NCBI GenBank assembly: GCA_965220745.1 | Contig: CBDCQT010000012.1 | Location: forward strand, 352,001 to 416,000 | Direction of reading: 5' to 3' | Origin: Alphaproteobacteria bacterium | Lineage (GTDB): Bacteria > Pseudomonadota > Alphaproteobacteria > UBA828 | Length of the DNA: 64,000 nucleotides | In this document: piece by piece, positions 26,876 to 53,787 of the stretch | Numbering within the stretch: position 1 is the stretch's first letter | Layout of the letters: each line of letters opens with the position of its first letter | The notes under the pieces: generated by a model | What the model was told of the DNA's origin: nothing | Database searches by the model: none | The model's input: the letters and a program-made list of their open reading frames with translations, nothing else | Made by a program: the position numbers and the translations under genes

Positions 26876-28111
26876 GTGAGCAAGCGCCGCATCATGCCCG
26901 CCGGACACTGGGACTGGAGCATGCCGGTCACGCTCTCCCAGGGCTGGCGGCTGGGCGACCTGGTCGTGGTCGGCGGCCAGATCTCGGCGGACGCAAAGGG
27001 CCGCACGGTCGGTGGCGACATCGAGACCCAGACCCGCAACATCATGGAGTTCATCGGCCGCGTGTTGCACGAGTCGGGCGCCGACTTCGGCGATGTGGTG
27101 AAGCAGAACGTCTACTACGTGGTCGATGACGAGAGCCCGCCGGCGGACGAGATCGTGCGGCGCATCGACGCGGTGCAGGCCGAGTATTTCGCGGCGCCGG
27201 GCCCGGTCACGACCGAGACGCCGGTCTCGGGCCTCGCCTACGAGGGGCTGCTGCTGGAGATCGACGCCTTTGCCGTGGTGGGCGGGGACAAGCGCCCGCT
27301 CACGCCCGAGGGCCACTGGTCGCGCGGCAACGGCATCGCCTGCGTCCAGGGCTGGCAGGCGGGCGACTGGGTCTTCGTCGGCGGCCAGCGCTCGCTCAAC
27401 GGGGACGGCTCGCTCAGGGATGCCGGCGACATCGCAGCCCAGACCCGCAATTGCTTCAACGGCATGGCGGGCGTCCTCGCCGAGGCCGGCGCCTCCATGA
27501 ACGACCTCTTGCGCCTCAACACCTACTACCGGCAAGAGACCACCGGCGACGACGTGACCGCGTTCTGGGAGGCGCTGACCCGGGTGCGCATGGAGCACCT
27601 ACCCAATCCGGGGCCCGCCGGCACGGGGCTCAGGGTCAAGGATTTCTCCCATCCGGGCGAGCTGATTCAGATCGAGGGCGTCGCCCATCTCGGCCGGGAG
27701 CGCCGGCGCATCATGCCGGCGGGCCACTGGGACTGGAGCATGCCGGTGCCGTTCTCCCAGGGCTGGCGGGTCGGCAACGTCGTGTTCGCGGGCGGCCAGA
27801 TCTCGGCGGACCAGAAGGGGCGGACGGTCGGCCCCGGCGACATCGCCCGGCAGACCGAGAACGTGTTCGAGAGCCTGATCGCGGTGCTCGAGGAGGCCGG
27901 TGCCGAGATGAGCGATGTGGTCAAGCTCAATACCTATTACCAGTACGACGACGGCGGCGCTTCGCCCACCGCGTACTGGGAGAAGATGACCGAGGTGCGG
28001 CGGCGCTACTTCCCACCGCTCGGGCCGGCGGCGACCGCGGTCCGCGTGGACGGCTACGCCTTCGAGGACCTGCTGATCGAGATCGAGGCGATTGCCGTGG
28101 TGGACGAATGA
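26876..28111 (+). CDS. Rid (YjgF/YER057c/UK114) family protein with three tandem domains
   Basis: Three repeats of P.GHW...QGW..G..V..GGQ...GDI..QT.N...(E/Q)I(D/E); DNA-level repeat at about 26885 and 27704. Confidence 0.85.
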   Translation: MSKRRIMPAGHWDWSMPVTLSQGWRLGDLVVVGGQISADAKGRTVGGDIETQTRNIMEFIGRVLHESGADFGDVVKQNVYYVVDDESPPADEIVRRIDAVQAEYFAAPGPVTTETPVSGLAYEGLLLEIDAFAVVGGDKRPLTPEGHWSRGNGIACVQGWQAGDWVFVGGQRSLNGDGSLRDAGDIAAQTRNCFNGMAGVLAEAGASMNDLLRLNTYYRQETTGDDVTAFWEALTRVRMEHLPNPGPAGTGLRVKDFSHPGELIQIEGVAHLGRERRRIMPAGHWDWSMPVPFSQGWRVGNVVFAGGQISADQKGRTVGPGDIARQTENVFESLIAVLEEAGAEMSDVVKLNTYYQYDDGGASPTAYWEKMTEVRRRYFPPLGPAATAVRVDGYAFEDLLIEIEAIAVVDE

Positions 28112-31052: not shown

Positions 31053-32573
31053 ATGGCGCTGCTTGAGATGCACGAATGGTACGACCTCGCGCGGGATACC
31101 AACTGGACTCCCGGCTACGTCGCCGAGGAGGAGATCTTCCCGCCCGAACTCAGCGATCCCTTTGGGATTTCGGTCGAGCAGTGGGAGACCTTCGACGAGC
31201 CCTACAAGGTCTGCTACCGGGACTACGTCGAGACCCAGCGCGACAAGGACATCGGCGCCTATTCAGTGAAGTCGGCGCTGGCGCGCGCGGACTTCTTCAA
31301 GAAGGCCACACCGCACTGGAAGGCGCTGCTCGCGCTGCACTTCAGCCCGATCGGCTTTGCCGAGTTCCACTCGGCGTCGGCCTTTGCGCGCATGACCCGG
31401 TTCAGCCGTGCGCCGGGGATGCGCAACATGGCGACCTTCGGCACGCTGGACGAAATGCGCCACGGCCAGATCCAGATGTATTTCGCCTACGAGTTCATCA
31501 AGCAGGACCGCGTCTTCGACTGGGCGCACAAGTCGTCCAAGACCGAGAACTGGATCATCATCAGCCTGCGTCACGCGCTGGACGACATCGAGCACACGCG
31601 CGACGCGATCAGCGCTGCGATCATGACCAACTTTGCCTTCGAGCAGGGCTTCACCAACCTGCAGTTCATCGGCCTCTCGGCGGATGCGGCAAAAGCCGGC
31701 GATCACACCTTCGCCACCATGCTGCAGAGCATTCAGACCGATGAGGCGCGGCATGCGCAGATCGGCACGCCGCTCATCAGCATCATGATCGAGAACGGGC
31801 GCAAGGCGGAGGCGCAGCGGCTGGTCGATATCGGCTTCTGGCGCATCTGGAAGCAGTTCTCCGCGCTCAGCGGCATCTCCATGGACTACTACACGCCGCT
31901 GGAGTTCCGCGAGCACTCGCTCAAGGAGTTCATGCACGAGTGGGTGGTCGATCAGTTCGCCCGCAACATGAAGGCGATCGGTCTCGATCTGCCCTGGTAC
32001 TGGGACTACTTCCTCCACGATATCGAGACCTTCCACCACTCGCAGCAGATCGGCGTCTACGTCTACCGCGCGACCGAATGGTGGCGACCGATCGCCTGCG
32101 TCTCGCCGGCCGAACGCGACTGGCTGGAGGAGAAGTATCCGGGCTGGAACGACACCTACGGCAAGTGCTGGGACGTGGTGATCGACAATATCCGGGGCGG
32201 CCGCTTCGAGAAGACGGTGCCCGAGGTGCCGCCGCTGATCTGCAACATGTGCGGGCTGGAGGTGACCGGAATGGGCGGCGCAGGCCGCCAGGTGAACGGA
32301 CGGCGTTGGAACGCCACGGATTTCCACCTCGACCACGCGGGCCGGCGCTATCACTTCTGTTCCGAGCCCTGCAAATGGGTCTTCGAGCTTGAGCCTACCC
32401 GCTATCAGGGCCACCGCAGCATCATCGACCGCGTGTTGGACGGCACCGTGCCGCCGGGCCCCGATGCCTTCTACGAGTACATGGGCCAGAGCTTCGAGGA
32501 ACGCGGCGTCTGCGGCTACGACTATCAGTGGGTCGACGGCTACGACCTGCCGCGCGCCGCGGCGGCCGAGTAG
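31053..32573 (+). CDS. tmoA: Soluble diiron monooxygenase alpha subunit (toluene/alkene group) with YHS domain
   Basis: E104, E134, H137, E197, E231, H234 (DEMRH, DEARH), T201/N202; YHFCSEPC. Confidence 0.9.
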   Translation: MALLEMHEWYDLARDTNWTPGYVAEEEIFPPELSDPFGISVEQWETFDEPYKVCYRDYVETQRDKDIGAYSVKSALARADFFKKATPHWKALLALHFSPIGFAEFHSASAFARMTRFSRAPGMRNMATFGTLDEMRHGQIQMYFAYEFIKQDRVFDWAHKSSKTENWIIISLRHALDDIEHTRDAISAAIMTNFAFEQGFTNLQFIGLSADAAKAGDHTFATMLQSIQTDEARHAQIGTPLISIMIENGRKAEAQRLVDIGFWRIWKQFSALSGISMDYYTPLEFREHSLKEFMHEWVVDQFARNMKAIGLDLPWYWDYFLHDIETFHHSQQIGVYVYRATEWWRPIACVSPAERDWLEEKYPGWNDTYGKCWDVVIDNIRGGRFEKTVPEVPPLICNMCGLEVTGMGGAGRQVNGRRWNATDFHLDHAGRRYHFCSEPCKWVFELEPTRYQGHRSIIDRVLDGTVPPGPDAFYEYMGQSFEERGVCGYDYQWVDGYDLPRAAAAE

Positions 32574-32582
32574 GCGCGTATC

Positions 32583-32843
32583 ATGGCCGACATCCCGCTC
32601 GCCGTGCTGCTCGAGGGCGACTACGGCTACAAGGTGCAGGTGTTCGACACCGGCGACACCATGGCGGTGCTGGCGGAGAAGGTGGCCGACCAGGTCGCGG
32701 GCGTCCTGGTGGCGCCGTTCCCGCCCGAGGCGGTTCTCAGGGTCCGCGTGCAGGGCAGCGCAGACCCGCTGCCCGACGAGCTGACCATCGCCGACGCCGG
32801 CTTCGTCGAGATGGAGTCCGTGGAAATCTACCGCGCCGGCTGA
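32583..32843 (+). CDS. tmoB: Diiron monooxygenase gamma subunit (TmoB-like)
   Basis: IPL...EGDY..V.DT.DTM; 86 aa directly after alpha. Confidence 0.8.
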   Translation: MADIPLAVLLEGDYGYKVQVFDTGDTMAVLAEKVADQVAGVLVAPFPPEAVLRVRVQGSADPLPDELTIADAGFVEMESVEIYRAG

Positions 32844-32874
32844 ACCAGCCGCTGCGGGCAAGGAGAAGACGAGC

Positions 32875-33168
32875 ATGACGACGGCAGACGACGCCGGCAA
32901 TCTCGTGGGCCCCGTGATGCGCGCGGGCGACATCGCCGACGCGGTGCTCGAAGCGATCCAGGAGGACAACGAGGGGCGCGAGGTCATCACCGAGGCTCAC
33001 GCGTCCTACATCCGAATCAAGGTCGCGGACGAGTGCTTCGTGCGCTTCGAGACGGTGGGCGACGTGCTCGGCCGCACCGTCACCCGCGGCGACATCGAGG
33101 CGAACATGCCGAGCTTCGCAGGGTTCATCCGCACCGAGCCGGACGGCATCCGGTTCGTCGCGCGCTAG
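32875..33168 (+). CDS. tmoD: Monooxygenase effector protein (TmoD/MmoB/DmpM)
   Basis: VGPVMRAGD.ADAV..AI..DN, YIRI, NMPSFAG.I. Confidence 0.88.
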   Translation: MTTADDAGNLVGPVMRAGDIADAVLEAIQEDNEGREVITEAHASYIRIKVADECFVRFETVGDVLGRTVTRGDIEANMPSFAGFIRTEPDGIRFVAR

Positions 33169-33179
33169 GAGGCTGTACC

Positions 33180-34169
33180 GTGACGGTCGAAGTCAAAGGC
33201 ATGAAGACGTGGAGCGGCCTCGCCAAGAAGAGGCGGCGGCCCAGCGAGTACGAAGTCGTCACCACCAACCTGCAGACCCGCACGCGGCACCCGGACCAGG
33301 CCTACGAGCTCTCGCCGGCGCCGGACCTGGGGATGAACCAGTTCTACAAGCAGAACGTCTCCGAGAGCCCGCTGCAGCATCCGGACTGGGAGGGTTTTCG
33401 GGACCCGGACGAGATGATCTATCGCGTCTACACGCGGATTCAGGACCAGCAGGAGCAGTACGTCGACGGCCTGCTCGACGAGCACAACGAGATCGGCCAC
33501 GACGCGACGCTCAGCGACGCGTGGCTCGACGCGCTGGAGCGGCTCTACACGCCCCGGCGCTTCCTTCAGATGGCGCTCCAAATGGGCGCGGCCTACCTGG
33601 TGCAAATTGCGCCGGCGAGCACGATTACCGCCTGCGCCGGGTTCCAGGACGGCGACGAGTTCCGCTGGCTCTCCCGCTGTGCCTACCGGGCGCGCGAGCT
33701 TCAGCGCGCGCACCCTTCGCGCGGCTTCGGCCAGACCGAGCGCCGCACCTGGGAGGAAGAGCCTGCGTGGCAGGGCTTCCGCGAGCTGCTGGAGAAGACG
33801 CTTGCCACCTACGACTGGGGCGAGCACTTCGTCGCGCTCAACCTGGTAGCGAAGCCGGCGGCGGACGAGGCGCACCGGCAGCTCGGCCGCATCGGGCGCC
33901 GCTTCGACGACGGGCTGCTCGGGCTGCTCGCCGACAACCAGATGCGGGACAGCGAGCGCTCACGGCGCTGGAGCGCGGCGCTCGTCGCCTTCTCGCTGGA
34001 GAACGAGGCGAACGCCGCCGTCCTCAACGGCTGGATCGAGAAGTGGATGCCGCTCGCGCGCCAGGCGGTCACGGCCTACTGCGGCGCCCTGCCCGAGCAG
34101 GACGACGCGACGGACGCGGCGCTTGCCGCAGTCGAGGCCTTCCACCGGAGCTTGGGACTCGACGCCTGA
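33180..34169 (+). CDS. tmoE: Diiron monooxygenase beta subunit (TmoE-like)
   Basis: KTWS.L..RRRPSEYEVVT, DW..FRDPD, YDWGE..VALNLVAKP; aggag RBS before GTG. Confidence 0.88.
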   Translation: MTVEVKGMKTWSGLAKKRRRPSEYEVVTTNLQTRTRHPDQAYELSPAPDLGMNQFYKQNVSESPLQHPDWEGFRDPDEMIYRVYTRIQDQQEQYVDGLLDEHNEIGHDATLSDAWLDALERLYTPRRFLQMALQMGAAYLVQIAPASTITACAGFQDGDEFRWLSRCAYRARELQRAHPSRGFGQTERRTWEEEPAWQGFRELLEKTLATYDWGEHFVALNLVAKPAADEAHRQLGRIGRRFDDGLLGLLADNQMRDSERSRRWSAALVAFSLENEANAAVLNGWIEKWMPLARQAVTAYCGALPEQDDATDAALAAVEAFHRSLGLDA

Positions 34170-34181
34170 GCCTCTACGCCC

Positions 34182-34886
34182 TCACCACGGGATGATGGTG
34201 CGCTCCGGCGCGTGCCAGAAGGCGGGCTGCGCGCCGGGCTCGACAGGCTCGACCTGATCGATTCGCTCGATCAGGGCGGCGGCGGCGTCCTCCGGCGGGC
34301 GCGCTTCCTGGCGCTCGTCGTCGAAGGTCATGGCGGTCGCCACCATGCCGGGGTGCAGGACCACCGCAGCGATGCCGCGCTGCGCGAGATCATGGGCGAG
34401 GTTGACCGCCACCATGTTGGCCGCGCACTTGGAGATGCGGTAGCCGTAGAGCCCGCCCGACTTATTGTCGCCGAGCGAGCCGATCCGGCTGGTGATGAAG
34501 GCGACCGTTGATCCGGGTTTCAGCTGGCCCAGCAGGGCTTCGGTCACGCGAAGGGGCCCGAGCGTGTTGACCTCGATTTGTCGGCGGATGGCATCGTAGT
34601 CGAGCGCGCCCAACGCGTCGCGCACCGCGATCCCGGCGTTGTTGATGAGCACGTCGATGGTGGTGTCCGTGCCGGCGAGCCTCCCCACGAGGGCCTGCAC
34701 CGCCTCGTCAGAGGTCACGTCCACGTCGGGCTCGACCCGGATGCCGAGCGCCCGTAGCGCGTCCGAGTCATCCAGGCAGGCCGCGATCACGGTGTCGCCG
34801 CGCGCGCGGTAAGCGCGGCAGAGCGCGTTGCCGATGCCGCGATCGGCGCCCGTGACCAGGACGACGCTCACGGCGCGGCCCGCCAC
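34182..34886 (-). CDS. SDR family oxidoreductase (CsgA-like)
   Basis: TGADRGIG, NNAG, YRISK, HPGMV; start may be 34871. Confidence 0.88.
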   Translation of the reverse strand: MAGRAVSVVLVTGADRGIGNALCRAYRARGDTVIAACLDDSDALRALGIRVEPDVDVTSDEAVQALVGRLAGTDTTIDVLINNAGIAVRDALGALDYDAIRRQIEVNTLGPLRVTEALLGQLKPGSTVAFITSRIGSLGDNKSGGLYGYRISKCAANMVAVNLAHDLAQRGIAAVVLHPGMVATAMTFDDERQEARPPEDAAAALIERIDQVEPVEPGAQPAFWHAPERTIIPW

Positions 34887-34901
34887 CCCGGCCGACGCCG
34901 C

Positions 34902-36917
34902 TTAGGCGACGCGGAGCGTGGGCTGCTCGTTGCGCGCCTGCCCCGGCACCTCCCAGTGGGCCGCGGTGCGGCGCCGCAGCATGTCGCGGAACTGCCGGGT
35001 GGTGTTGGGCAGAAGCTCGCCCGTGCCCCAGTCCACGATCACGCCGTACTGTCGGATCAGGTCGAGCGCGTCGAGCTCCTTGCTGCGGTACTTGGCCGCG
35101 ATGTCTTCCGCATCCACGTCGAGCCAGGCGTGGCGTTGCGCTCGGATGCGCTCGCGCTCGGCCGCGGTCGCTGCCTCGTCCACCTCGTATTCGGCGAGGT
35201 CGGCATCGATCTCGCGGACCACGACGCCGTAATCCTTCTTCGCCCGCTCGATGGAGACGTAGCCGTCGGCCACGTCCTCGCACACGGTTGCGGGATCGCG
35301 CGTGAGGGGGTCGCCGAGGCCGCCGCCGCCGGCGGACGGCCGGGTCACGGTATCGCCGGCCTCCACCGGCACGCCGGAGAAGATCGAGCCCAGGTAACGC
35401 TCGCCCTGCGTGCCGGGATTGACCCAGACGCCGTGCGGAATCGAAGGCAGCCCGCCCCAGAGGCCCCAGGTCACCGAGCGCTCGCGGTCGCAGCAGTAGG
35501 AGACCACCGAGCGCTCCGCCTTGGTGAGGATCGCGCCCTTCTCGACGCCGAGGCCGCCGCGCGAGTTGCCCGGCCCGCCGGAATCGACGATGAGCTCGTG
35601 GCCGGTGGTCAGCACCGGGGCGAGCCGCTCCTGCCCCTCGAAGGGCTGGGTGCCGAGCTGGACGCCGAAGACCGGCCCGGTGGCGCCCCAGCCGTCGCGG
35701 CCGTTGCGCGCGCCCCAGCCGCCCACCATCCAGTCGTACCACATGAAGTAGGGGCGGTCCTCCTTGCGGCCGTCGCGCCCGCCGATCAGCAGGTATTCGA
35801 GGTTGAAGGTGCAGGCCATGGCGCGCTCGGGCAGGATTTCGGCCCAAAGCTCGAACACCGAGTTCATGATCTTCTCGAAGGGGCCCGAGCAGAAGCCGGC
35901 AACCGGCGTCGGCCAGTCCGCGTTGACCACGGTGCCCTTCGGTCCGAGGTCCACGGTGACCACCCGGTAGAAGCCGGAGTTCAGCGGGATGTCGGGCGAT
36001 TGCATCTTGGTGCCGGCGACGATGGCCGCGAACGCGCCGCCGTAGCAGCAGTTGAGGAAGGTCGAGATCGTCTTCGGGTGCGAGCCGGAGAGGTCGTAGT
36101 GCACGCTGTCGCCGTCGATGGTCATCTTGATGCGGATCGGGATCAGCCCCTCGCCGGCGACCGGGTCCACGTCGATGTAGTCCTCGGTCTCCCACACGCC
36201 GTCGGGCAGCCTGGCGATGCGCTGGCGGGTCAGCGTCTCGACGTAGTCCTGCACTTCGGCGAAGGAGGTCTGGATCACGTCGACGCCGTACTTGTCACAG
36301 AGCCGGCCGACCTCCCGCTCGGCGACGTTGCAGGCCTCCGCCTGGGCCTGGAGGTCGCCGATGATGTCGGCGGGCGCGCGGGTGTTGTTGGCGATCAGCT
36401 CGGCCACGTCGGAGAGGTATTCGCCCTTGCTGTAGACCCGGACCGGCGTGATGCGCAGCCCCTCGGCCATGTGGTCGAGCGCGCTCACGTTGAAGGAGCC
36501 CGGCACCGCGCCGCCGACATCGGCCCAATGCCCGTTGGCCTGGGAGAAGCCCAGGTGGATGCCCTTGTAGAAGATGGGGCGGACGATGCGCGTGTCGTTG
36601 AAGTGGGTGCCGCCCTGGTAGACATCGTTGACGACGAAGGTATCGCCGGGGTGGATGTCATCGCCGAACTTGTTGATGACGGCCTGGGCGGTGTAGTGCA
36701 GCGTGCCCACGTGGGCGGCGATGTCGCCCGAGCCCTGCATGATGGTGTTGCCTTCGGTGTCGCAGATCGCCGAGGAAAAATCCCGGGACCAGATCACGAA
36801 GGAGTAGCAGGTGCGGAAGATCTGCTCCGCCATCTGGTCGACGATGTTGACGTAGGCGTTCTTGAGCACCTCGAAGGTCACGGGGTCGAGCGTGTAGCCT
36901 TCTCCGTTCTTGCTCAT
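34902..36917 (-). CDS. Hydantoinase B/oxoprolinase family protein (long C-terminus)
   Basis: DPVTFEV, GGTHFND, GHWADVGG, GGGGLGDP, YVSIERAKKDYGVV. Confidence 0.9.
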   Translation of the reverse strand: MSKNGEGYTLDPVTFEVLKNAYVNIVDQMAEQIFRTCYSFVIWSRDFSSAICDTEGNTIMQGSGDIAAHVGTLHYTAQAVINKFGDDIHPGDTFVVNDVYQGGTHFNDTRIVRPIFYKGIHLGFSQANGHWADVGGAVPGSFNVSALDHMAEGLRITPVRVYSKGEYLSDVAELIANNTRAPADIIGDLQAQAEACNVAEREVGRLCDKYGVDVIQTSFAEVQDYVETLTRQRIARLPDGVWETEDYIDVDPVAGEGLIPIRIKMTIDGDSVHYDLSGSHPKTISTFLNCCYGGAFAAIVAGTKMQSPDIPLNSGFYRVVTVDLGPKGTVVNADWPTPVAGFCSGPFEKIMNSVFELWAEILPERAMACTFNLEYLLIGGRDGRKEDRPYFMWYDWMVGGWGARNGRDGWGATGPVFGVQLGTQPFEGQERLAPVLTTGHELIVDSGGPGNSRGGLGVEKGAILTKAERSVVSYCCDRERSVTWGLWGGLPSIPHGVWVNPGTQGERYLGSIFSGVPVEAGDTVTRPSAGGGGLGDPLTRDPATVCEDVADGYVSIERAKKDYGVVVREIDADLAEYEVDEAATAAERERIRAQRHAWLDVDAEDIAAKYRSKELDALDLIRQYGVIVDWGTGELLPNTTRQFRDMLRRRTAAHWEVPGQARNEQPTLRVA

Positions 36918-36939
36918 TGTCTCTTCCTCGCTCTCTGCG

Positions 36940-38994
36940 TCAGCCTTCGGCCTGCGGGATGTGCATGACGATGGTGTGCCAGGGGTCGACCTCGGCCTTG
37001 AGGCCGGGCGGCACCAGCACCGTTGAATCGAGCTGCTCGATGATTGCCGGCCCTTCGACCACCGCGCCGGCATGCAGGGCGTCGCGGTCGTAGATGGGCG
37101 TCATGATCGGATCGGGCGCCTCGTCGAAGACCACCAGCCGCTCGGTCTCGGGCTCCGGCGCCGAGCGGTCCATCTCTTCCCTGGCGAACTCGGCCTTCTG
37201 CGAGAGCCCGGTGGCGGTGACGGTGAGGCGGTAAATCTCGACCGGCGCGTCGGGCCTGGAATAGTTGTGCTCGCGGCCGTGCTCCTCGTGGAACTGGGCG
37301 ATCGCCGCATCCAGCGAGCCGGCAGTCGCGTCCACCTTGATCGACATGGAGCGCCACTGGCCGAGATAACGCATGTCGACGAAGCGCTCGAACTGCATGC
37401 GGTCTTCGGTCACGCCCTCGTGCAGCAGCCGCTCGCGGCCTTCGTCTTCCAGCGTGCTGAAGGTCTGCTCGATCTCCTCGACCTTCGCCTCGTCGGTGGA
37501 GCGCAGATACATCTGCGACATGTCGTGCTTGATATCCACCAGCAGGCAGCCGAGGGCGGACGTGACGCCGGGGTTCGGCGGCACCAGCACGGTCGGGATC
37601 GAGAGGTCGCGGGCGAGCGCCACGCCGTGCAGCGGCCCGGCGCCGCCGAAGACGGTGAGCGCGAAGTCGCGCGGGTCGTAGCCCCGCCGGATCGAGACCA
37701 GGCGCACGGCGTCCGCCATGTTGGCGTTCGCCACCTGGAGGATGGAGACCGCAGCCTCCTGCACCGTGAGCCCGAGCGGGTCGGCGATGCGGCGCTTGAT
37801 CGCCTCCTCGGCGAGCGAGCGGTCCAACGTGACCGCACCGCCCGCGAGCCGGTCGCTGATGCGGCCGAGAACGATGTTGGCATCGGAGTTGGTGGGTTCC
37901 ACGCCGCCCCGGCCGTAGCAGGCGGGTCCGGGCGACGAGCCCGCCGACTGCGGCCCGTTGCGGAGCGAATTGGCCTCGTCGATCCAGGCGAGCGAGCCGC
38001 CGCCCGCGCCGATGGTCAGCACCTCGATGCTGGGGAAGCAGATCGGGTAGCCGTACTGCACGTACCAGTCGGTGGTGACGCGGAGGTTGCCCCGGTCGCA
38101 GAGCGAGACGTCGGTGCTGGTGCCGCCCATGTCGAGGCTGATGGAGTTCTCGTAGCCCGCGAGCTGGGCGACGAAGCGGCTCGCGATGGCGCCCGCCGCG
38201 ATGCCCGAGGCGGCGAGCCGGGCCGCGAATTTCGATGCCGTGCTCTCGGTCATCACGCCGCCGCCGGAGTGCAGCAGCAGGATGTCCTCCTCGTAGCCGC
38301 CTTCGCGGAGCCGCGTAGCGAGCCGGCCCACGTAATCGCCGGCAACGGGGGCAAGCACCGCGTTGGCCACGGTCGTGGAGAAGCGCTCGTGCTCGAAGAT
38401 CTCGGGCATGATCTCGCTGGAGAGCGAGATGGACGCGCCGGGCACTTCCTCCTCGAGGATGTCGCGCATGCGGCGCTCGTTCTCGGGGTTGGCGAAGGCG
38501 TTGGCGAAGCAGACCGCGATGGTCGTAACCCCGCGCTTGTTGATGATGCGCGCAGCCTCGCGCGCCTCGGCCTCGTTCACTGGCTCGATGATCGTGCCGC
38601 TGTAATCGATGCGCTCGCTGACCACCAGGCGGTTGCGGCGCTGGATGTAGGGCGGCGCCATCTCCTTGTAGGTGTCCCACAGGTCGTCGCGGGTGCCGCG
38701 CCGGATCTCGATCACGTCGCGGAAGCCCTTGGTGGTGACCATGATCGCGGGCGGGAAGTTGCGCGTGATCAACGCGTTGGTGGCGAGCGTGGTGCCGTGG
38801 GCGAAGAGCACCATGTCCTGGAGGTCCACCCCGCCGGCCTTGATGCCCTCTAGCACGCCGTCGATCGGATCCGGCGTCGTCGGGGTCTTGGCGACGCGCA
38901 TCTGGCCGCTCGCTTCGTCCAGGACGCACACGTCGGTGAAGGTGCCACCGACATCGCACGCGACGCGAACGGCCGCCCTCGAAACGTCATTCAT
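36940..38994 (-). CDS. Hydantoinase A/oxoprolinase family protein
   Basis: DVGGTFTD, HGTT.ATN, DMGGTSTD, GAGGGS, GPACY. Confidence 0.92.
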   Translation of the reverse strand: MNDVSRAAVRVACDVGGTFTDVCVLDEASGQMRVAKTPTTPDPIDGVLEGIKAGGVDLQDMVLFAHGTTLATNALITRNFPPAIMVTTKGFRDVIEIRRGTRDDLWDTYKEMAPPYIQRRNRLVVSERIDYSGTIIEPVNEAEAREAARIINKRGVTTIAVCFANAFANPENERRMRDILEEEVPGASISLSSEIMPEIFEHERFSTTVANAVLAPVAGDYVGRLATRLREGGYEEDILLLHSGGGVMTESTASKFAARLAASGIAAGAIASRFVAQLAGYENSISLDMGGTSTDVSLCDRGNLRVTTDWYVQYGYPICFPSIEVLTIGAGGGSLAWIDEANSLRNGPQSAGSSPGPACYGRGGVEPTNSDANIVLGRISDRLAGGAVTLDRSLAEEAIKRRIADPLGLTVQEAAVSILQVANANMADAVRLVSIRRGYDPRDFALTVFGGAGPLHGVALARDLSIPTVLVPPNPGVTSALGCLLVDIKHDMSQMYLRSTDEAKVEEIEQTFSTLEDEGRERLLHEGVTEDRMQFERFVDMRYLGQWRSMSIKVDATAGSLDAAIAQFHEEHGREHNYSRPDAPVEIYRLTVTATGLSQKAEFAREEMDRSAPEPETERLVVFDEAPDPIMTPIYDRDALHAGAVVEGPAIIEQLDSTVLVPPGLKAEVDPWHTIVMHIPQAEG

Positions 38995-40589: not shown

Positions 40590-40658
40590 GTCTCCCCGTT
40601 TTCCTGCGTCTAACGTCGCGTTTCCGAAACGAAAGAGCAGAGTGCTCCCGTCCCCGTC

Positions 40659-40750
40659 TCGTCATGGCCGGGCTTGACCCGGCCATCCACTCGCGCATCC
40701 CGGTCTTGCTTGGACCGACTGGATGCCCGGATCAAGTCCGGGCATGACGA
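40659..40750. repeat. Inverted pair of REP-type palindromic units
   Basis: tcgtcatggccgggcttgacccggccatcca (40659-40689) and near reverse complement tggatgcccggatcaagtccgggcatgacga (40720-40750). Confidence 0.8.
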
Positions 40751-40800
40751 CAGGAGGTCGATGGCACCCGTGCGCATTTTCAAGACACGACGCCAGACTA

Positions 40801-41511
40801 TCACGACATGCAAAGCCGCGTGTGCAGGCGCTCGTGCCGCATGCTGGCGACATCGAGGCCGGCGGTGGCGCTCCCGAGAGCGTCCAGCTCCATGGCGCAG
40901 GCGTCCTCGGTGCCTTGGGTCAGCAGCGGCCAGGCCTCCTTCACGATGCGCTGGCTCTCGATCTGGCCGAGCGGGATCAGCCGCGCGCCGACGCTGACGA
41001 GGTTGGAGAGCGCCGCGTGAAGGAAGGCGAGCACCGCGTCCGCCGTGCCGATGCCTTGCGCCTCCGCCGCCGCGCCGAAGATCACCGCCTGATGGCCCTC
41101 GCAGCGCCCGTCGCGCACAGCCTCTGCAAAGGGCGCGAGGGGCTCGCCCGAGAAGACGTCGCGGTAGGCGCCGAGCAGCGCGCGGCCGGTCTTGAACGAG
41201 GCCTCGCGCGCTTCCCGACTGAGCTTGAGCGCGCCCACGATGCGGTCGAGGTCCACCAGCCCGTCGAGATCGCCTGCGGCGGCGCGGCGGTGGGCGTGGG
41301 CGACTGCGGCGCCATCGGTGGGCGCGGCGGCGTAGCGGAGCCAGTCCCGGCAGGCTCCCTCGAAGCTTGCGGCGTCGTCCAGCGCGCCCGAGTCGATCCA
41401 GGTCTCAAAGCCGTAGGAATGGTTGAACGCGCCGGTCGGGAACGAGGCGTTCGCCACCTGCAGCAGGTAGAGGAGCCGGTCCGGCGCGTCAGTGGTCATG
41501 GTGATGGCCAT
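40801..41511 (-). CDS. ureF: Urease accessory protein UreF
   Basis: FPTGAFNHSYGFE, RLIPLGQ, HERLHTRLCMS; start may be 41499. Confidence 0.92.
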   Translation of the reverse strand: MAITMTTDAPDRLLYLLQVANASFPTGAFNHSYGFETWIDSGALDDAASFEGACRDWLRYAAAPTDGAAVAHAHRRAAAGDLDGLVDLDRIVGALKLSREAREASFKTGRALLGAYRDVFSGEPLAPFAEAVRDGRCEGHQAVIFGAAAEAQGIGTADAVLAFLHAALSNLVSVGARLIPLGQIESQRIVKEAWPLLTQGTEDACAMELDALGSATAGLDVASMRHERLHTRLCMS

Positions 41512-41995: not shown

Positions 41996-43702
41996 TTAGC
42001 GGAAGTAGAAGAGCTGGGTCAGCGGCAGGGTCTTGGCCGGCTTCACCGTGATGCGCTCGCCATCGACGTAGACGTTGTAGGTCTCGGGGTCGATCTCGAT
42101 ATCGGGCAGCGCGTCGTTGTGGATCATGTCGCGCTTGGAGATGGTGCGGCAGCGCTTCACCGGCACCAGCGTCTGGGTCTCGATCCGGTCCGCAAGGCCG
42201 TTGTCGAGCGCCGCCTTGGTGACGAAGGAATAGCTCGTCCGCTTCGGGTTGACGCCGAGGGAGCCGTACTGCGGGCGGTACTTGAGCGGCTGGCCGGTCA
42301 TCAGCGAGCCCGCCGGGTCGCCCATCACCGCGTGCGAGATGAAGCCGCCCTTCAGCGTCACCTCGGGCTTGGCGATGAAGAACTCGGGCCGCCAGAACAC
42401 CAGGTCCGCCAGCTTGCCGGGCGTGATCGAGCCCACGTAGGAATCGACGCCGAAGCAGATCGACGGGTTGATCGTCACCTTGGCCAGATAGCGCTTGATC
42501 CTGAAGTTGTCGTTGTCCGAGCCGTCCTCCGAGAGCCGCCCGAAGCGCACCTTGTTCACCGCCGCGAGCTGGAAGGAGCGCTGCGCGCTCTCCGCCGCGC
42601 GGCCCACGCCCTGGCTGTCGGAGCCGATCATGCTGATCGCGCCCATGTCGTGCAGCACGTCCTCGGCCCGCATGGTCTCCGCCCTGGCCCGGCCCTGAAT
42701 GAAGGCGATGTCCGTCGGCACGCTCTTGTTCAGGTTGTGGCAGGTGATCAACATGTCGATCTCTTCGTCGTACGTGTTGATCGAGAACGGGTTGGTCGGG
42801 TTGGTCGAGCTTGGCAAGAGGTTGGGCTCGCCGCAGACCCGCATCATGTCCGGCGCGTTGCCGCCTCCCGCGCCCTCGCAGTGGTAGATGTGCATGACGC
42901 GGCCGTTGATGGCGGCGATGGTGTCCTCGTAGTAGCCGGTCTCGTTCAGCGTGTCGGCGTGAATCTGGACCTGGAAGTCGTACTCGTCCGCAAGCTCCAT
43001 GGTGGTCTCGATGGCGGCGGGCGATGACGACCAGTCCTCGTGAATCTTGAGCCCCGTGGCGCCGGCCAGGATCTGCTCCACCAGCGAGCCCGGCGTCGCC
43101 GCGTTGCCCTTGCCGAAGTTGCCGAAGTTCAGCGGGATGTCCGCCATCGCCTCCAGCATGCGCTGGATGTTGAACACGCCGGGGCACTCGATGCCCACCG
43201 TCTTCGGCCCCGAGCCGCCGCCGATCACCGTGGTGAAGCCCGCGTTCTGATACTCGTAAAGCTGCTGCACGGAATCGAAGTGGGGGTGGATGTCGACGAA
43301 GCCCGGCGTGCAGATCATCCCCTCCACCGAGAGGATGTCGGTGTTGGGCGAGACGATCAGCCCCGGCGTGATGTTCATGGTGTCCGGGTTGCCGGACTTG
43401 CCGACGCCGACGATCTCGCCGTCCAGCACGCCGATGTCGCCCTTCACGACGCCGAGGATGGGGTCGATGATCACCGCGTTGGTGATCACCATGTCGAGCC
43501 CGCCGTCGCTCTGCTTCCACTTCGACGCCTGGCCCATGCCGTCGCGGATGGTCTTGCCGCCGCCGAAGACGAGCTCGTCGCCGTAGGTGGTGTAGTCGTG
43601 CTCGATCTCGGCCACGAGGCCGGTGTCGGCGAGGTGAATCTTGTCTCCGGTGGTCGGCCCGTACTGCGCGGCGTAGTCCGGGCGGGCGATCTTCATGCTC
43701 AT
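41996..43702 (-). CDS. ureC: Urease alpha subunit, divergent substrate pocket
   Basis: YGPTTGD, FGGGKTIRDGMGQ, DIHPH, GLKIHEDW, HADTLNE, HCEGAGGG, SDSQ. Confidence 0.92.
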   Translation of the reverse strand: MSMKIARPDYAAQYGPTTGDKIHLADTGLVAEIEHDYTTYGDELVFGGGKTIRDGMGQASKWKQSDGGLDMVITNAVIIDPILGVVKGDIGVLDGEIVGVGKSGNPDTMNITPGLIVSPNTDILSVEGMICTPGFVDIHPHFDSVQQLYEYQNAGFTTVIGGGSGPKTVGIECPGVFNIQRMLEAMADIPLNFGNFGKGNAATPGSLVEQILAGATGLKIHEDWSSSPAAIETTMELADEYDFQVQIHADTLNETGYYEDTIAAINGRVMHIYHCEGAGGGNAPDMMRVCGEPNLLPSSTNPTNPFSINTYDEEIDMLITCHNLNKSVPTDIAFIQGRARAETMRAEDVLHDMGAISMIGSDSQGVGRAAESAQRSFQLAAVNKVRFGRLSEDGSDNDNFRIKRYLAKVTINPSICFGVDSYVGSITPGKLADLVFWRPEFFIAKPEVTLKGGFISHAVMGDPAGSLMTGQPLKYRPQYGSLGVNPKRTSYSFVTKAALDNGLADRIETQTLVPVKRCRTISKRDMIHNDALPDIEIDPETYNVYVDGERITVKPAKTLPLTQLFYFR

Positions 43703-46146: not shown

Positions 46147-47595
46147 TCAGCCGGCCGGGCGCTCCACGGCGCGGAAGGGGTGGCGGGCCCGCAGCGTGTT
46201 CACCGCGTCGAAGATGGCCGGGAAGGTCGGCCGCTCCACGTAGGCGCCGTCGCCCTGGTCGGCGCGAATCTCCGAGCCGTCCCAGACATGCCGGCCCCGG
46301 CTCACGGTGGCGCGCGCGACGCCGGTCACCGTCATCCCCTCGTAGATGTTGAAGTCGTTGTTCTGGAGGTGGGTCTTGGCCGAGATCGTGCGCGTGGCCT
46401 TGGGGTCCCAGACCACGATATCCGCGTCCGCACCCACCTTGATCGCCCCCTTGCGCGGATAGATGTTGAAGATCTTCGCGGCGTTGGTGGACGTGATCGC
46501 GACGTACTCGTTGGCCGTGATCCGGCCAGTCTCGACACCCTGGTCCCAGAGCACCGACATGCGGTCCTCGATGCCGCTGGTGCCGTTCGGAATCTTCGAG
46601 AAATCGTCCTTGCCCATCTCCTTCTGCCAGTTGCAGTAGGCGCAGTGATCGGTCCCGGTGGTCTGCAGGTTGCCGGATTGCAGGCCGCGCCAGAGGTCCT
46701 CCTGATGGTCCTTGGGTCGGAACGGCGGGCTCATCACGAAGCCGCGGGCGACCTCCGGGTTGGGGTCGTAGTAGACGCTCTCGTCGATTACCAGGTGCTG
46801 CGCCAGGCACTCGCCGTAGACGCGCTGCCCCTCCAGCCTGGCGCGGGTGATCGCCTCCAGCGACTCCCGGCAGGTCACGTGGACGATGTAGATCGGCGCC
46901 TTGAGCAGCTGGGCGATGCGGATCGCACGGTTGGTGGCCTCGCCCTCGACCTCCGGCGGGCGCGACTGCGGGTGGCCTTCCGGCCCGGTGATGCCGGCCT
47001 TGAGCAGCTCCTGCTGCATCATCCAGACCAGGTGGCCGTCCTCGCAGTGGACGGTGCAGAGCGCGCCGAGATCCCGCGCCCGCGCGAAGCTGTTCATCAT
47101 CTTCTCGGCGTCGAGCATGACCTCGCCCTTGTAGGCCATGAAGTGCTTGAAGCTGTTGACGCCGTGATCGCGGGTCAGCGTCTCCATGTCCTCGTGAATT
47201 TCGTCGTTCCAGTTGGTGATGGCGACGTGGAAGGAATAGTCCGACGGCGCCTTCGCCGCGCGCTGCTGCCAGATCCGATAGGCATCCATCGGCCGCTGGT
47301 CCGGCGCCGGAATCACGAAGTCGATGATCATGGTGGTCCCGCCCGAGAGGCCGGCGGCGGGGCCGGTATAGAAGTCGTCGCCGGTCACGGTATCCATGAA
47401 CGGCGTTTCCATATGGGTGTGGGGGTCGATGCCGCCCGGCATGACCAGCGCGTCTCCGGCATCCACCGTCGTCGTGCCCGCGGGCACGTCGAGCCCGGTG
47501 CCGATTTCCTGAATCTTGCCGTCCGCGCAATAGATGTCGGCGACGTAGCGCTCGTCTGCGGTCACCACCGTGCCACCCTTGATCAGCGTCGACAT
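46147..47595 (-). CDS. hydA: Dihydropyrimidinase / D-hydantoinase
   Basis: GGIDPHTH, SFKHFMAYK, VHCEDG, SRPPEVEGEA, MSPP, TDHC, IPNG. Confidence 0.93.
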   Translation of the reverse strand: MSTLIKGGTVVTADERYVADIYCADGKIQEIGTGLDVPAGTTTVDAGDALVMPGGIDPHTHMETPFMDTVTGDDFYTGPAAGLSGGTTMIIDFVIPAPDQRPMDAYRIWQQRAAKAPSDYSFHVAITNWNDEIHEDMETLTRDHGVNSFKHFMAYKGEVMLDAEKMMNSFARARDLGALCTVHCEDGHLVWMMQQELLKAGITGPEGHPQSRPPEVEGEATNRAIRIAQLLKAPIYIVHVTCRESLEAITRARLEGQRVYGECLAQHLVIDESVYYDPNPEVARGFVMSPPFRPKDHQEDLWRGLQSGNLQTTGTDHCAYCNWQKEMGKDDFSKIPNGTSGIEDRMSVLWDQGVETGRITANEYVAITSTNAAKIFNIYPRKGAIKVGADADIVVWDPKATRTISAKTHLQNNDFNIYEGMTVTGVARATVSRGRHVWDGSEIRADQGDGAYVERPTFPAIFDAVNTLRARHPFRAVERPAG

Positions 47596-47744
47596 GGCTG
47601 CCTCCCTTCCCGGCGCGGTCGATGCCGGCGTCACGGCGCCTCCCTGGCAGGCCGGGCCGGACCGTTGCCGCGCGATATCCGCTGCCCCACACTACCCTAT
47701 CTGTGGCACACAGTTGCGATCTTCGCCGAAGGGGAGGGCCGAGG

Positions 47745-51473: not shown

Positions 51474-52532
51474 TAGAGCATTTTTCGACCTTATAGAATC
51501 TTTAGAATTTTCAATTGCTTGTAGATGTGATTCAAGATGCAGGCTGGTGAAGGAGGCCAGCCTGCATGACGCGACCTCTTTCGAATGATCTACGTCGTCG
51601 GGTGGTGACGGCGGTGGTCGATGGCGGCATGTCCCGGCGGAGCGCGGCGAGACGCTTCGGCATCGCGCCGTCGACGGCGATCAAGTGGGTCAGCGCCTGG
51701 CGCCGCACGGGCAGCTGGCGGCCGAGAGCGCAGGGCGGCGACAGACGCTCGCAGCGGATCGAGGCACGGGCCGAGGTGGTGCTTGCGCTCCTGGACGAGA
51801 CCCCGGACATGACCTTGGCGGAGATCGCCGCCCACCTGGAGGACGAGCACGGCCTGCGGGTCTCCCAGAGCGCGGTGTGGCGCTTCTTTCACCGCCGCGG
51901 CATCACCTTCAAAAAAAACCGCGCACGCCAGCGAGCAGCAACGCGCTGACGTGCTCAGGCGCAGGCGCGCCTGGGTCGAAGCCCAGCCCGATCTCGACCC
52001 TGAGAAGCTCGTCTTCGTCGATGAAACAGGCGCGTCCACCAAGATGGCGAGACGCTCGGGCCGGGCTCCGCGCGGACAGAGGTGCCGCGCCCCTGTGCCC
52101 CATGGCCACTGGAAGACCACAACCTTCGTCGGTGCCCTCAGGCTGAGCGGGATGACCGCTCCCATGGTGCTCGACGGCGCCATGCATGGCGCCGCCTTCC
52201 TCGCCTACGTAGACCAAGTGCTGGTGCCCACGCTCAAGCCCGGCGACATCGTGGTGATGGACAACCTTGCCTGCCACCGCAGCAGCGCTGTCCGCGACGC
52301 CATTCACCAGGCCGGGGCCGAGCTCCACTTCCTGCCGCCCTACAGCCCCGACCTCAACCCGATCGAGATGGCCTTCTCCAAGTTCAAGGCCTACCTCAAG
52401 CGACGCGCCGCCCGCACCGTCCCGGAACTCTGGGACGCCATCGGCGAAGCCACAGACAACTTCACACCCGCCGAATGCCAAAACTACTTCGCTGCTGCAG
52501 GATATGACCGCGTATGATCGGAACCTGCTCTA
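51474..52532 (+). mobile_element. IS630 family insertion sequence
   Basis: TA at both ends; TIRs tagagcatttttcgacc / gatcggaacctgctcta. Confidence 0.85.
51566..52517 (+). CDS. IS630 transposase (two ORFs joined by -1 frameshift)
   Basis: [15 protein letters not shown]; A8 run at 51911-51918; DDE motifs [19 protein letters not shown]. Confidence 0.9.
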
Positions 52533-52602
52533 GCACATGATCAGTCCAGTTTAGGTAGCACGTGAGTTGTCCGGTTAGGTGTCTCCGCGAGGAGTTGCCT
52601 GG

Positions 52603-53787
52603 ATGAACCGGACGATGTGGCTACAGGAGCGCAGGATGGAGAAGCTTTGCGATGTGCTGGGACGCTTCGAGGCGAAGCGTTTGTCGGCGCTGGATGCGGC
52701 GGAGCTGCTGGGGATGTCGGAGCGCAGCTTCCGGCGCTGCCGGCGGCGCTACGAAGCGGAAGGTCTGGACGGCCTGTTCGACCGCCGGCTCGGCAAGGCG
52801 TCGTCGCGCCGGGTCTGTGTGGATCGGATCGAGTGGGTGCTGGAGCAGTACCGCACCCGCCATGTCGGCTGGACGGTCAAGCATTTCCACGACCATCTGC
52901 GCGCGCATCACGGCTTTCACTTGAGCTACAGCTGGACCAAGACGGTGTTGCAGCGTGCGGGGCTGGTGACCCGGGCGGCACGCCGCGGGGCGCATCGCCG
53001 GCGGCGGCCGCGCAAGCCGTACCGCGGCATGATGCTGCATCAGGACGGCTCGCGTCACGCGTGGCTGGCCGGCCGGGCGCCGCTCGATCTGATCGTCACC
53101 CCGGACGACGCCACCTCGGAGATCTACTCGGCCTTCCTGGTCGAGGAGGAAGGCACGGCCTCGACCTTCCGGGCGCTCAAGCAGGTGTTCACCGAGCACG
53201 GCCTGCCCGGCGCGCTGTACACCGACCGCGGCAGCCACTACTTCCACACCCCCGAGGCCGGCGGCAAGGTCGACAAGGGCCGGCACACCCAGGTCGGGCG
53301 CGCCCTGCACCAGCTCGGCATCGAGCACATCGCCGCCTACTCCCCCGAGGCGAGGGGTCGCTCGGAGCGCGCCTTCGGCACCCTCCAGGACCGCCTGGTC
53401 AAGGAGCTGGCGCTGGCCGGCATCGACACCGTCGAGGCTGCCAACCGCTTCATCGAAGAGCGCTACCTGCCCGACCACAACCGCCGCTTCGCGATCCCGC
53501 CCGAGCTCGACGAGACCGCCTTCGTGCCGCTGGTCCGGCCCGACCAGATCGACGACATCCTCTGCCTGCATGCTGAGCGCGTGGTCGCCCGCGACAACAC
53601 CGTGCGCTACGCCAGGCGGGTCTTGCAGCTCCCCGCCGGCCCCGATCGCCCGCACTACGTCAAGGCGAAGGTCCGGGTGCACGAGTATCCCGACGGCACG
53701 CTCGCCGTCTTCCACGGACCCAGGTGCCCGGCCCGCTACCACGCCGATGGCGAACCGTTCGTAACTCCAAACCGGAAGGCCGCGTGA
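52603..53787 (+). CDS. ISNCY/IS1202-type DDE transposase
   Basis: HQDGS, DDAT, YTDRGS, SPEARGRSERAFGTLQDRL. Confidence 0.9.
   Translation: MNRTMWLQERRMEKLCDVLGRFEAKRLSALDAAELLGMSERSFRRCRRRYEAEGLDGLFDRRLGKASSRRVCVDRIEWVLEQYRTRHVGWTVKHFHDHLRAHHGFHLSYSWTKTVLQRAGLVTRAARRGAHRRRRPRKPYRGMMLHQDGSRHAWLAGRAPLDLIVTPDDATSEIYSAFLVEEEGTASTFRALKQVFTEHGLPGALYTDRGSHYFHTPEAGGKVDKGRHTQVGRALHQLGIEHIAAYSPEARGRSERAFGTLQDRLVKELALAGIDTVEAANRFIEERYLPDHNRRFAIPPELDETAFVPLVRPDQIDDILCLHAERVVARDNTVRYARRVLQLPAGPDRPHYVKAKVRVHEYPDGTLAVFHGPRCPARYHADGEPFVTPNRKAA

Follow-up and report, generated by a model that had tools for sequence, protein, structure and literature searches.

The stretch of DNA analysed here (the window; 64,000 nt) lies on the forward strand of an Alphaproteobacteria bacterium genome (GCA_965220745.1, contig CBDCQT010000012.1, positions 352,001-416,000) and carries a urease-type gene cluster, ureABCEFGD. 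Full-length profile matches showed all seven genes to be intact and adjacent on the minus strand between 39101 and 44572 (Table 1); these include the four maturation genes ureE, ureF, ureG and ureD, which an earlier reading of this DNA from its letters (the original prediction) had also described as intact. The UreB protein is extended at both its N- and its C-terminus relative to the domain of about 100 aa. The subject of this analysis is the alpha subunit, UreC, which all sequence and fold tests assign to the urease family, and which belongs to a distinct and conserved clade of paralogues, here called family B, rather than being a one-off or a sequencing oddity.

When read from the translation, the six ligands of the dinickel centre of the window UreC (H139, H141, K219, H248, H274 and D362) are all present, as are the catalytic and flap residues H221, D223, C321, H322 and R338, whose counterparts in Sporosarcina pasteurii urease are His222, Asp224, Cys322, His323 and Arg339; N282 and N323 were also placed. 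Ureases in the PDB were matched with E values of about 1e-183 to 1e-187, the best being that of Yersinia enterocolitica (4z42, E 1.8e-187). The canonical enzymes of Klebsiella aerogenes and S. pasteurii (2kau and 5a6t) have the same three-subunit set, alpha fold, nickel ligands, catalytic residues and UreDEFG proteins, and are approximately 49-50% identical to the window UreC in structural alignment. An AlphaFold2 model built from a 23-sequence alignment (mean predicted local distance difference test score, pLDDT, 72.3; predicted template modelling score, pTM, 0.82) matched the S. pasteurii alpha subunit (5a6t_C) in Foldseek with a TM-score of 0.90, and the first 39 ranks were all ureases. The protein exceeds the cut-off of profile NF009686 (779.7 against 354 bits) and does not reach three narrower equivalogs for urease alpha (706 against 1001, 700 against 907 and 684 against 1083 bits).

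It is in the elements around the metal site that the window UreC departs from canonical ureases. It reads HFDSVQ, GGGSGPKTVGIECPG in the loop, GGGNAPD, EEIDMLITCHNL in the flap and SDSQGVGR, at columns where eleven canonical UreC sequences (from Nitrosopelagicus, Synechococcus, Paenibacillus, Methylovulum, a Neisseriaceae bacterium, four Hyphomicrobiales genomes and two cluster representatives) read HFI[CSA]PQ, GGGTGPxxGTxATT[CV]TPG, GGGH[AS]PD, EHLDM[LM]MVCHHL and SDSQAMGR, the canonical loop being 3 aa longer. Compared with the structurally known canonical enzymes, GGGH is likewise replaced by GGGN and the flap EHLDMLMVCHHL by that of the window, while FAESRIR becomes FIQGRAR and HEDWGxTP becomes HEDWSSSP. 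The elements which contact urea in canonical ureases are thus not matched: the Ala170 “ATT” loop is replaced by KTVGIEC, and the QAM of Ala366-Met367 by QGV. The nickel ligands, the residues H221, C321, H322 and R338, and the five motif changes had all been claimed in the original prediction, and each was found exactly as described. According to the review PMC7433671, the Ni(2)-bound urea nitrogen is held by the carbonyls of Ala170 and Ala366 and the distal nitrogen by Gly280 and Ala366, the C-beta of Ala366 touches the Ni(2) water, and the flap is locked by Asp224, His323 and Arg339, with His323 contacting the urea nitrogens. That account supports the earlier statement that alanine residues and the flap surround the urea nitrogens.

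Family B comprises 93 UreC sequences, four of them extracted from genomes, with about 68-100% identity to the window UreC; in a word-indexed search identities fell in an unbroken series from 99% to 68% and then stepped to 62%. The family is spread over Alpha-, Beta- and Gammaproteobacteria, Actinomycetota and Gemmatimonadota. Carriers found by genome scan included Hansschlegelia, Methylopila, Hyphomicrobium, Ancylobacter, Chelatococcus, Camelimonas, Mesorhizobium, Pseudaminobacter, Roseovarius, Planktomarina, two Mycobacterium strains, Thermoleophilia and metagenome-assembled genomes (MAGs) of Burkholderiales/Aquabacterium, to which Pontibaca and a Gemmatimonadaceae MAG can be added. Carriers are uncommon: of 400 genomes sampled evenly from the same class, only two gave matches at 75% identity or above, both of them from the window's own taxonomic family, and a tblastn search of plasmids gave no family-B cluster among the matches listed (40 records), with one further record in the 60-80% identity band.

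The altered motifs are well kept across this clade: HFDSVQ in 84 of the 93 sequences, SDSQGVGR in 82, the loop in 81, GGGNAPD in 77 and the flap in 69. All six nickel ligands, R338 and N323 are found in every member. Since the motifs are nearly invariant, the differences from canonical ureases are not due to chance. The catalytic residues are less strictly held, with H322 and D223 each kept in 86/93 and C321 in 77/93; the flap histidine is replaced by Phe in 6, Cys321 by Val in 15 and Asp223 by Asn in 7. One sub-branch (P0068, P0069, P0071-P0073, P0078 and others) has the flap E[AMQ]NDIIITVFNL, in which Cys-His has become Val-Phe, and in the two such members that were checked (P0068 and P0086) KIHED is changed to KLHEN or KIHEN. 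Replacement of the flap histidine and Asp223 while the nickel ligands are kept means that the acid/lock triad used for urea is dispensable in part of family B.

Table 1. Coordinates of the urease-type cluster, of neighbouring features in the window and of two further urease paralogues in the same genome.
Feature	Position	Strand	Evidence or remark
ureA, gamma subunit, 103 aa	44261..44572	-	PF00547 131 bits; TIGR00193 132.4 against cut-off 82.3; ATG start, ribosome-binding-site-like GGGAG
ureB, beta subunit, 169 aa	43726..44235	-	PF00699 128.2 bits, residues 30-125; TIGR00192 125.1 against cut-off 90.3
ureC, alpha subunit (568 aa) of the short-loop type, family B	41996..43702	-	stop-free open reading frame; TIGR01792 747.7 bits
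ureE, 160 aa	41489..41971	-	PF05194, PF02814; His-rich C-terminal tail HGAHHHHDHHGHHHDH
ureF, 236 aa	40801..41511	-	PF01730 141.9 bits
ureF-ureG spacer, two short GC-rich hairpin repeats	40590..40800	.	sequence read; varies among close relatives
ureG, 216 aa	39939..40589	-	TIGR00101 334.9 bits against cut-off 204.2
ureD, 292 aa	39101..39979	-	PF01774 144.5 bits
Junction lacking transporter segment	44587..44828	.	L009 and L010 aligned to the window by blastn
HyuA	36940-38994		directly downstream of ureD, with HyuB
HyuB	34902-37073		downstream of ureD
D-hydantoinase/dihydropyrimidinase	46147-47634		TIGR02033 570.7 bits against cut-off 393; beyond the FAD (flavin adenine dinucleotide) monooxygenase upstream of ureA
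Soluble di-iron monooxygenase, alpha (YHS domain) and beta	31053-34169		next to short-chain dehydrogenase/reductase (SDR) and HyuB/HyuA-like genes (34182-38994)
Paralogue A, in order: amidohydrolase (481 aa), ureF, fused ureAB (231 aa), ureC (570 aa), amidohydrolase (408 aa)	G000:C3:124000-143900 (L102)
Paralogue C	G000:C7:244000-263900 (L103)		directly after ureD; no ureA or ureB adjoining; two-component system downstream

A FastTree phylogeny of 53 UreC sequences, in which the supports are Shimodaira-Hasegawa (SH)-like only and several long branches were flagged, grouped family B with other short-loop ureases in one superclade (SH-like 96), whose sister group is the canonical ureases. The superclade also holds two further families, A and S62 (the latter being the 62%-identity series, 25 sequences), a paralogue from the window's own genome (C) and a Mycobacterium sequence; within it S62 and B pair together. 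The stem of family B is long, at 0.34 changes per column (SH-like 100), and its internal branches are short, which is the pattern of a shift followed by conservation. Families A and S62 have in common with B the T-V-G-I-[DE] loop, HFD[SC]A[QG] and glycine for Ala366 (they read SDSQGMGR). Unlike B, they keep GGGHAPD, EHLDMxMxCHHL, FAESRIR and Met367, and each combines a canonical flap with its own signature (GGSLGPITVGID[SC]GG for family A, GGGTGPKTVGIDAPG for S62). From this distribution the short loop, D143 and the glycine for Ala366 predate family B, while GGGN, EEIDMLIT-CHN-L, FIQGRAR, valine for Met367, HEDWSSSP and several others are specific to it. The earlier view that all of the altered motifs are unusual for a urease therefore holds in part: GGGN and the valine for Met367 are indeed peculiar to family B; the short loop, D143 and G365 are shared with A and S62, and the CHNL flap and a residue other than His at 314 also occur in Yersinia urease.

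The placement of the changes was then assessed by counting fixed differences, defined as positions where one residue is found in at least 85% of family B (93 sequences) and another in at least 85% of the canonical set (11 sequences), with family A (5) and S62 (25) as further sets. There are 42 such differences between B and canonical UreC, and 24 of them fall within the active-site neighbourhood, where 8.8 would be expected (p = 9e-8 by the hypergeometric test). The test is a crude one: the neighbourhood (119 of 568 positions) was defined from the sequence, with no 3D distances, and comprises the Ala170 loop, the flap and the stretches within ±5 residues of each of 14 catalytic or contact residues. 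Seventeen changes are found in B only (Y151, V159, S225, M270, N282, S307, E314, I319, N323, T330, G337, M344, R345, V366, F377, N383 and I443), and 9 of these are in the neighbourhood (p 0.003). In family B as a whole the Ala170 carbonyl loop has become the hydrophobic T-V-G-I-E, 3 aa shorter, Ala366 has become Gly and Met367 has become Val. The changes are thus concentrated in the substrate-contact loop, in the flap and in the residues next to H221 and D223, in agreement with the pocket clustering that was originally proposed.

The neighbours of family-B genes were surveyed by clustering the open reading frames of 48 loci of at least 15 kb. Recurrent neighbours are an Urt-like substrate-binding protein (SBP) belonging to a five-gene ATP-binding cassette (ABC) transporter (34/48), a LuxR-family regulator (28/48) and HupE/UreJ (14/48). 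The regulator is of the LuxR solo kind, and all four examples tested contain an autoinducer-binding domain. Actinobacterial loci have an SSF or MFS transporter instead, one of them with a GAF-LuxR regulator and a CN-hydrolase. None of the tested components of the B-linked transporter reached the curated cut-offs, bacterial or archaeal, for urea transporters; the SBPs scored 333-345 bits with TIGR03669 (cut-off 494.8) and 156-167 bits with TIGR03407, and their best PDB matches are urea-binding proteins (E 5.5e-37).

The ligand contacts of this SBP can be compared with those of P. marinus UrtA (PDB 8hic). As given in PMC10392092, urea is contacted by Trp120, Ser122, Tyr141, Gln144, Glu146, Tyr190, Asn246 and Ser274, and binding is abolished by mutation of Ser122, Gln144, Tyr190, Asn246 or Trp120. 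The B-linked transporter has the five-gene architecture of UrtABCDE, and its SBP keeps Gln144, Glu146, Tyr190 and Phe192; it differs in its scores and in its contacts. In 26 of the 27 B-linked SBPs aligned, the first seven contact positions read Tyr, Gly, His, Gln, Glu, Tyr and Val, and position 274 varies; the remaining protein (the second copy in L074) keeps Ser at 122, so that Y141H is found in 27/27 and S122G in 26/27. Taking all four changed contacts as strong evidence against urea was considered and rejected, since W120Y and N246V also occur in an archaeal-type urea SBP of Haloarcula, and only S122G and Y141H are therefore B-specific. These two changes hint at a different ligand. Separately, the UrtA-like SBPs of genomes G001-G004 number 7-11 per genome and fall into several discrete types; in one type, although it scores above the TIGR03407 cut-off, Gln144 is replaced by Phe and Asn246 by Val.

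Eleven B-bearing genomes were examined for the UreC copies that they contain. In seven (Hansschlegelia, Methylopila, Chelatococcus, Ancylobacter, Roseovarius, Mesorhizobium and Camelimonas; G001-G004 and G780-G782) family B is present beside a canonical UreC scoring 917-1029 bits. The first four of these genera have canonical, A and B copies, and Chelatococcus has a C-like copy as well. Two others, those of the window and of Mycobacterium sp. 141, have only short-loop paralogues beside B. The earlier suggestion of a urease paralogue is supported, and its lineage is a distinct one.

Several observations speak for a change of substrate: the long stem followed by conservation, the B-only changes at contact positions, a transporter of the family's own with two altered contacts, the unusual regulator, the co-residence with canonical and family-A systems in several genera, and the loss of the flap histidine in sub-branches. 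We put at roughly 0.45 the probability that the physiological substrate is a urea analogue and not urea, probably with some residual urease activity; the larger substrate of the original prediction, or one otherwise different from urea, is a reasonable and plausible idea. UreABC would then be a functional Ni-dependent amidohydrolase, whose dinickel centre with its carbamylated lysine is loaded by UreD, UreE, UreF and UreG, and family B would be a separate, conserved and re-specialised urease subfamily. The C-N bond of a small urea-like compound, either an N-substituted urea or a short amide, would be cleaved by normal urease chemistry, and some activity on urea would probably be kept. In most members the substrate would be imported by the dedicated Urt-like ABC transporter and sensed through the LuxR-type regulator. 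N-methylurea, or another small N-substituted urea or amide, would fit both a small Urt-like pocket and the hydrophobic replacements, but the identity of the substrate is a guess.

Alternatively, family B may be a genuine urease (EC 3.5.1.5), an isozyme in which the loop and flap alter the Km, pH optimum, flap gating or inhibitor sensitivity rather than the substrate, and which is retained beside a canonical urease for another regime such as low urea, acid or different regulation. We rate this explanation almost as likely as a urea analogue, and several observations speak for it and against a new substrate. The main clade and the window UreC have the complete residue set for urea hydrolysis, including the nickel ligands, H221, D223, C321, H322 and R338, and the window protein lies above the NCBI equivalog cut-off for urease alpha (TIGR01792, 680 bits). 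The solved Yersinia enterocolitica urease (4z42, 6yl3) shares with it the CHNL flap (elfdmimvchnl aligned to eeidmlitchnl) and a residue other than His, there Leu, at 314; such flap features may tune pH behaviour and not substrate. Yersinia also has the gene order ureABCEFGD and an extended UreB. The UreC of Haloarcula hispanica, presumably from an active urease (the literature search gave no source for this), has a loop 4 aa shorter than canonical, although ATT is kept. The family's conserved neighbours, a transporter and a Ni permease (HupE/UreJ), are all of the kind found with ordinary ureases and include no further catabolic enzyme. The Haloarcula SBP, which adjoins a urease, resembles the B-linked ones at W120Y and N246V, reading Tyr120 and Val246; it has Ala274. 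Further, two of the 11 genomes (G778 and G779; Rhodobacteraceae QY30 and a Thermoleophilia MAG) have no UreC other than B, and the only ureG found in the window's genome (one match over the cut-off in a search of that genome) is the copy in the window cluster. The transporter itself is missing from the window: loci L009 (2927-9118) and L010 (2924-9115), at approximately 95% nucleotide identity, carry a segment of about 6.2 kb between the FAD monooxygenase gene and ureA which encodes the Urt-like ABC transporter (SBP genes at L009:6586 and L010:6583), and this segment was not found by blastn in the window or in L008. Elsewhere in the window's genome the best homologue of its SBP, on contig C10, is 51% identical. 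In the AlphaFold2 model pLDDT falls below 50 at residues 163-173, 278-281, 302-338 and 363-367; these are precisely the loop, flap and pocket elements, and the model therefore says nothing about pocket shape. Finally, no atypical or alternative-substrate urease was found in a literature search, and we know of none.

A plain isozyme would, however, imply that genomes of 4-7 Mb in several genera maintain three or four complete transporter-plus-hydrolase systems for one substrate. It also sits poorly with the long stem and the B-unique fixed changes at substrate contacts, with the near-invariance of S122G and Y141H in the SBP, with a LuxR solo in place of a known urease regulator, and with the loss of the flap histidine in sub-branches. 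The likeness to Yersinia urease is itself limited, as that enzyme, unlike the window UreC, has a long loop (GGGIGPTDGTNGTTVTPG, with NGTT in place of ATT), GGGHAPD and SDSQAMGR. Furthermore, a Yersinia-type representative (P0134; HVHMISPQ, ELFDMIMVCHNL) groups with the canonical ureases and not with B in the short-loop superclade, though its placement is uncertain because of its long branch (0.96).

The window's genome has no long-loop, canonical UreC, so that the second canonical urease for which a search had originally been suggested is not there; instead it has two further non-canonical paralogues, A on contig C3 and C on contig C7 (Table 1). The UreC of paralogue A has the loop GGSLGPITVGIDCGG and a canonical flap, and ureF is the only accessory gene beside it, with no ureD, ureE or ureG; paralogue C has the motifs HVHWMSAE and GGTMGPLFAIDCGG and the flap CHLL. 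Also in this genome, at G000:C12:704577-709373, are two weak matches resembling the N-terminus of urease alpha (E 9e-6 and 2.5e-4), with a TAA in each frame, beside a UrtA-like SBP that scores 432.8 bits, below its cut-off of 492.75. The distribution of accessory genes, with ureG only in the window cluster, ureF alone beside paralogue A and ureD alone beside C, together with the missing cognate transporter, raises the idea that the window UreC is inactive or serves mainly as a platform by which ureEFGD are kept for the other two paralogues. We regard this as very improbable, as all seven genes are intact and the nickel ligands (93/93) and near-invariant motifs are conserved across phyla, which argues for selection on catalysis.

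The immediate flanks of the cluster offered another candidate for its function. HyuA and HyuB, members of the ATP-dependent hydantoinase/oxoprolinase family, are encoded directly downstream of ureD, and a dihydropyrimidinase upstream of ureA; in the window genome and its close relatives UreC might accordingly act in a hydantoin or cyclic-amide pathway, decarbamoylating the N-carbamoyl product of HyuA/HyuB or of the dihydropyrimidinase. HyuA homologues are found near B in L007-L010, L012, L031, L049 and L067, and dihydropyrimidinase near ureC in L008, L010, L058, L155 and L192. This association is mainly a matter of close relatives (95-99% UreC identity), with a HyuA match in 9 of the 70 family-B loci (L007-L076), while the neighbour conserved across the clade is a transporter of the Urt-like type, for small ligands. 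The only named models matched by HyuA and HyuB are those for caprolactamase, and the scores (528.7 and 335.9 bits) are far below the cut-off of 1000. The adjoining soluble di-iron monooxygenase and SDR suggest an unrelated pathway; the di-iron monooxygenase/SDR/HyuBA neighbourhood is possibly one for a ketone or lactam. In a tblastn comparison of 80 loci the flanking genes (HyuA/B, SDR, FAD monooxygenase, dihydropyrimidinase and di-iron monooxygenase) occurred only in close relatives. They were therefore rejected as functional context, and the hydantoin pathway was reduced to a minor and unlikely alternative.

Some other features of the window may be recorded. The hairpins in the spacer between ureF and ureG are GCCCGGA...TCCGGGC and GGCCGGG...CCCGGCC, and blastn alignments to L008, L012 and L027 are interrupted there, between about 40597-40611 and 40801-40805; the spacer looks like an inserted repetitive extragenic palindromic (REP)-like element. 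An insertion sequence element is likely at 51951-53787, at a distance of 7 kb from the ure cluster, where there are a fragment of a DDE_3 transposase (188 aa) and a helix-turn-helix-rich open reading frame of 402 aa. A 411-aa protein with three RidA/L-PSP domains is encoded at 26876-28111, adjoining an AsnC-type regulator and a gene of the polysaccharide-deacetylase family.

The contexts of the related short-loop families may also be informative. A complete family-A cluster is found on plasmid pMET1 of Aminobacter sp. NyZ550 (L151, 722-20422), where the annotation says no more than urease and urea transporter. The cluster lies behind genes for an AmiC-like protein with an SBP domain and for an ANTAR regulator, and it comprises an SBP of its own, urtBCDE, ureE, ureF, fused ureAB, ureC, ureG, ureD and hupE. 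In the metagenomic S62 loci (L155-L158, L161 and L165) the order is urtBCDE, an aliphatic amidase (708.8 bits; cut-off 427), a class-II amidotransferase-like, a glutamate-synthase-like and a type-III glutamine-synthetase (GS-III)-like gene (566 against 469.6 bits), and ureABC; no accessory ure genes follow directly, and in L155 a dihydropyrimidinase does. The middle genes, which are mgsABC-/gmaS-like, presumably resemble those of the N-methylglutamate pathway for methylamine. S62 members were not found in two 400-genome searches, one of the class and one of the phylum (best identities 66% and 65%). These contexts would point to small amides and amines for families A and S62, which is not so for B itself; such islands may simply gather nitrogen-scavenging functions. 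For B, genes resembling AmiE, mgsA, mgsC and gmaS were not found in 70 family-B loci or in the window. A GS-III/GmaS-like gene above the cut-off is present in all five B-bearing genomes tested, but elsewhere in the genome, and the link to the N-methylglutamate pathway is therefore weak. For none of A, S62, B and C was a member found that has been characterised by experiment.

Urease has been treated as a family with one substrate, and studies of oceans, soils, the rumen and symbionts rely on ureC as the marker gene for urea use. We tentatively propose that family B, the Urt-like transporter and the LuxR solo may together make up a hitherto unrecognised system for the uptake and hydrolysis of a urea analogue, for example N-methylurea, which would be the first non-urea physiological substrate in the urease family. 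If instead family B is a plain urease, the Ala170 loop and Ala366/Met367, which have been thought near-invariant, would be shown to be replaceable. If the proposal is true, families A, C and S62 would represent further specificities, and “urease” would be a multi-substrate family of Ni-amidohydrolases under one annotation name. If family B and its short-loop relatives act on other small nitrogen compounds, surveys of ureC would over-count ureolysis, and the route taken by some dissolved organic nitrogen compound would be one not yet assigned. Family B would also be a natural example of the re-targeting of a dinickel site, of use to enzyme engineering and inhibitor design.

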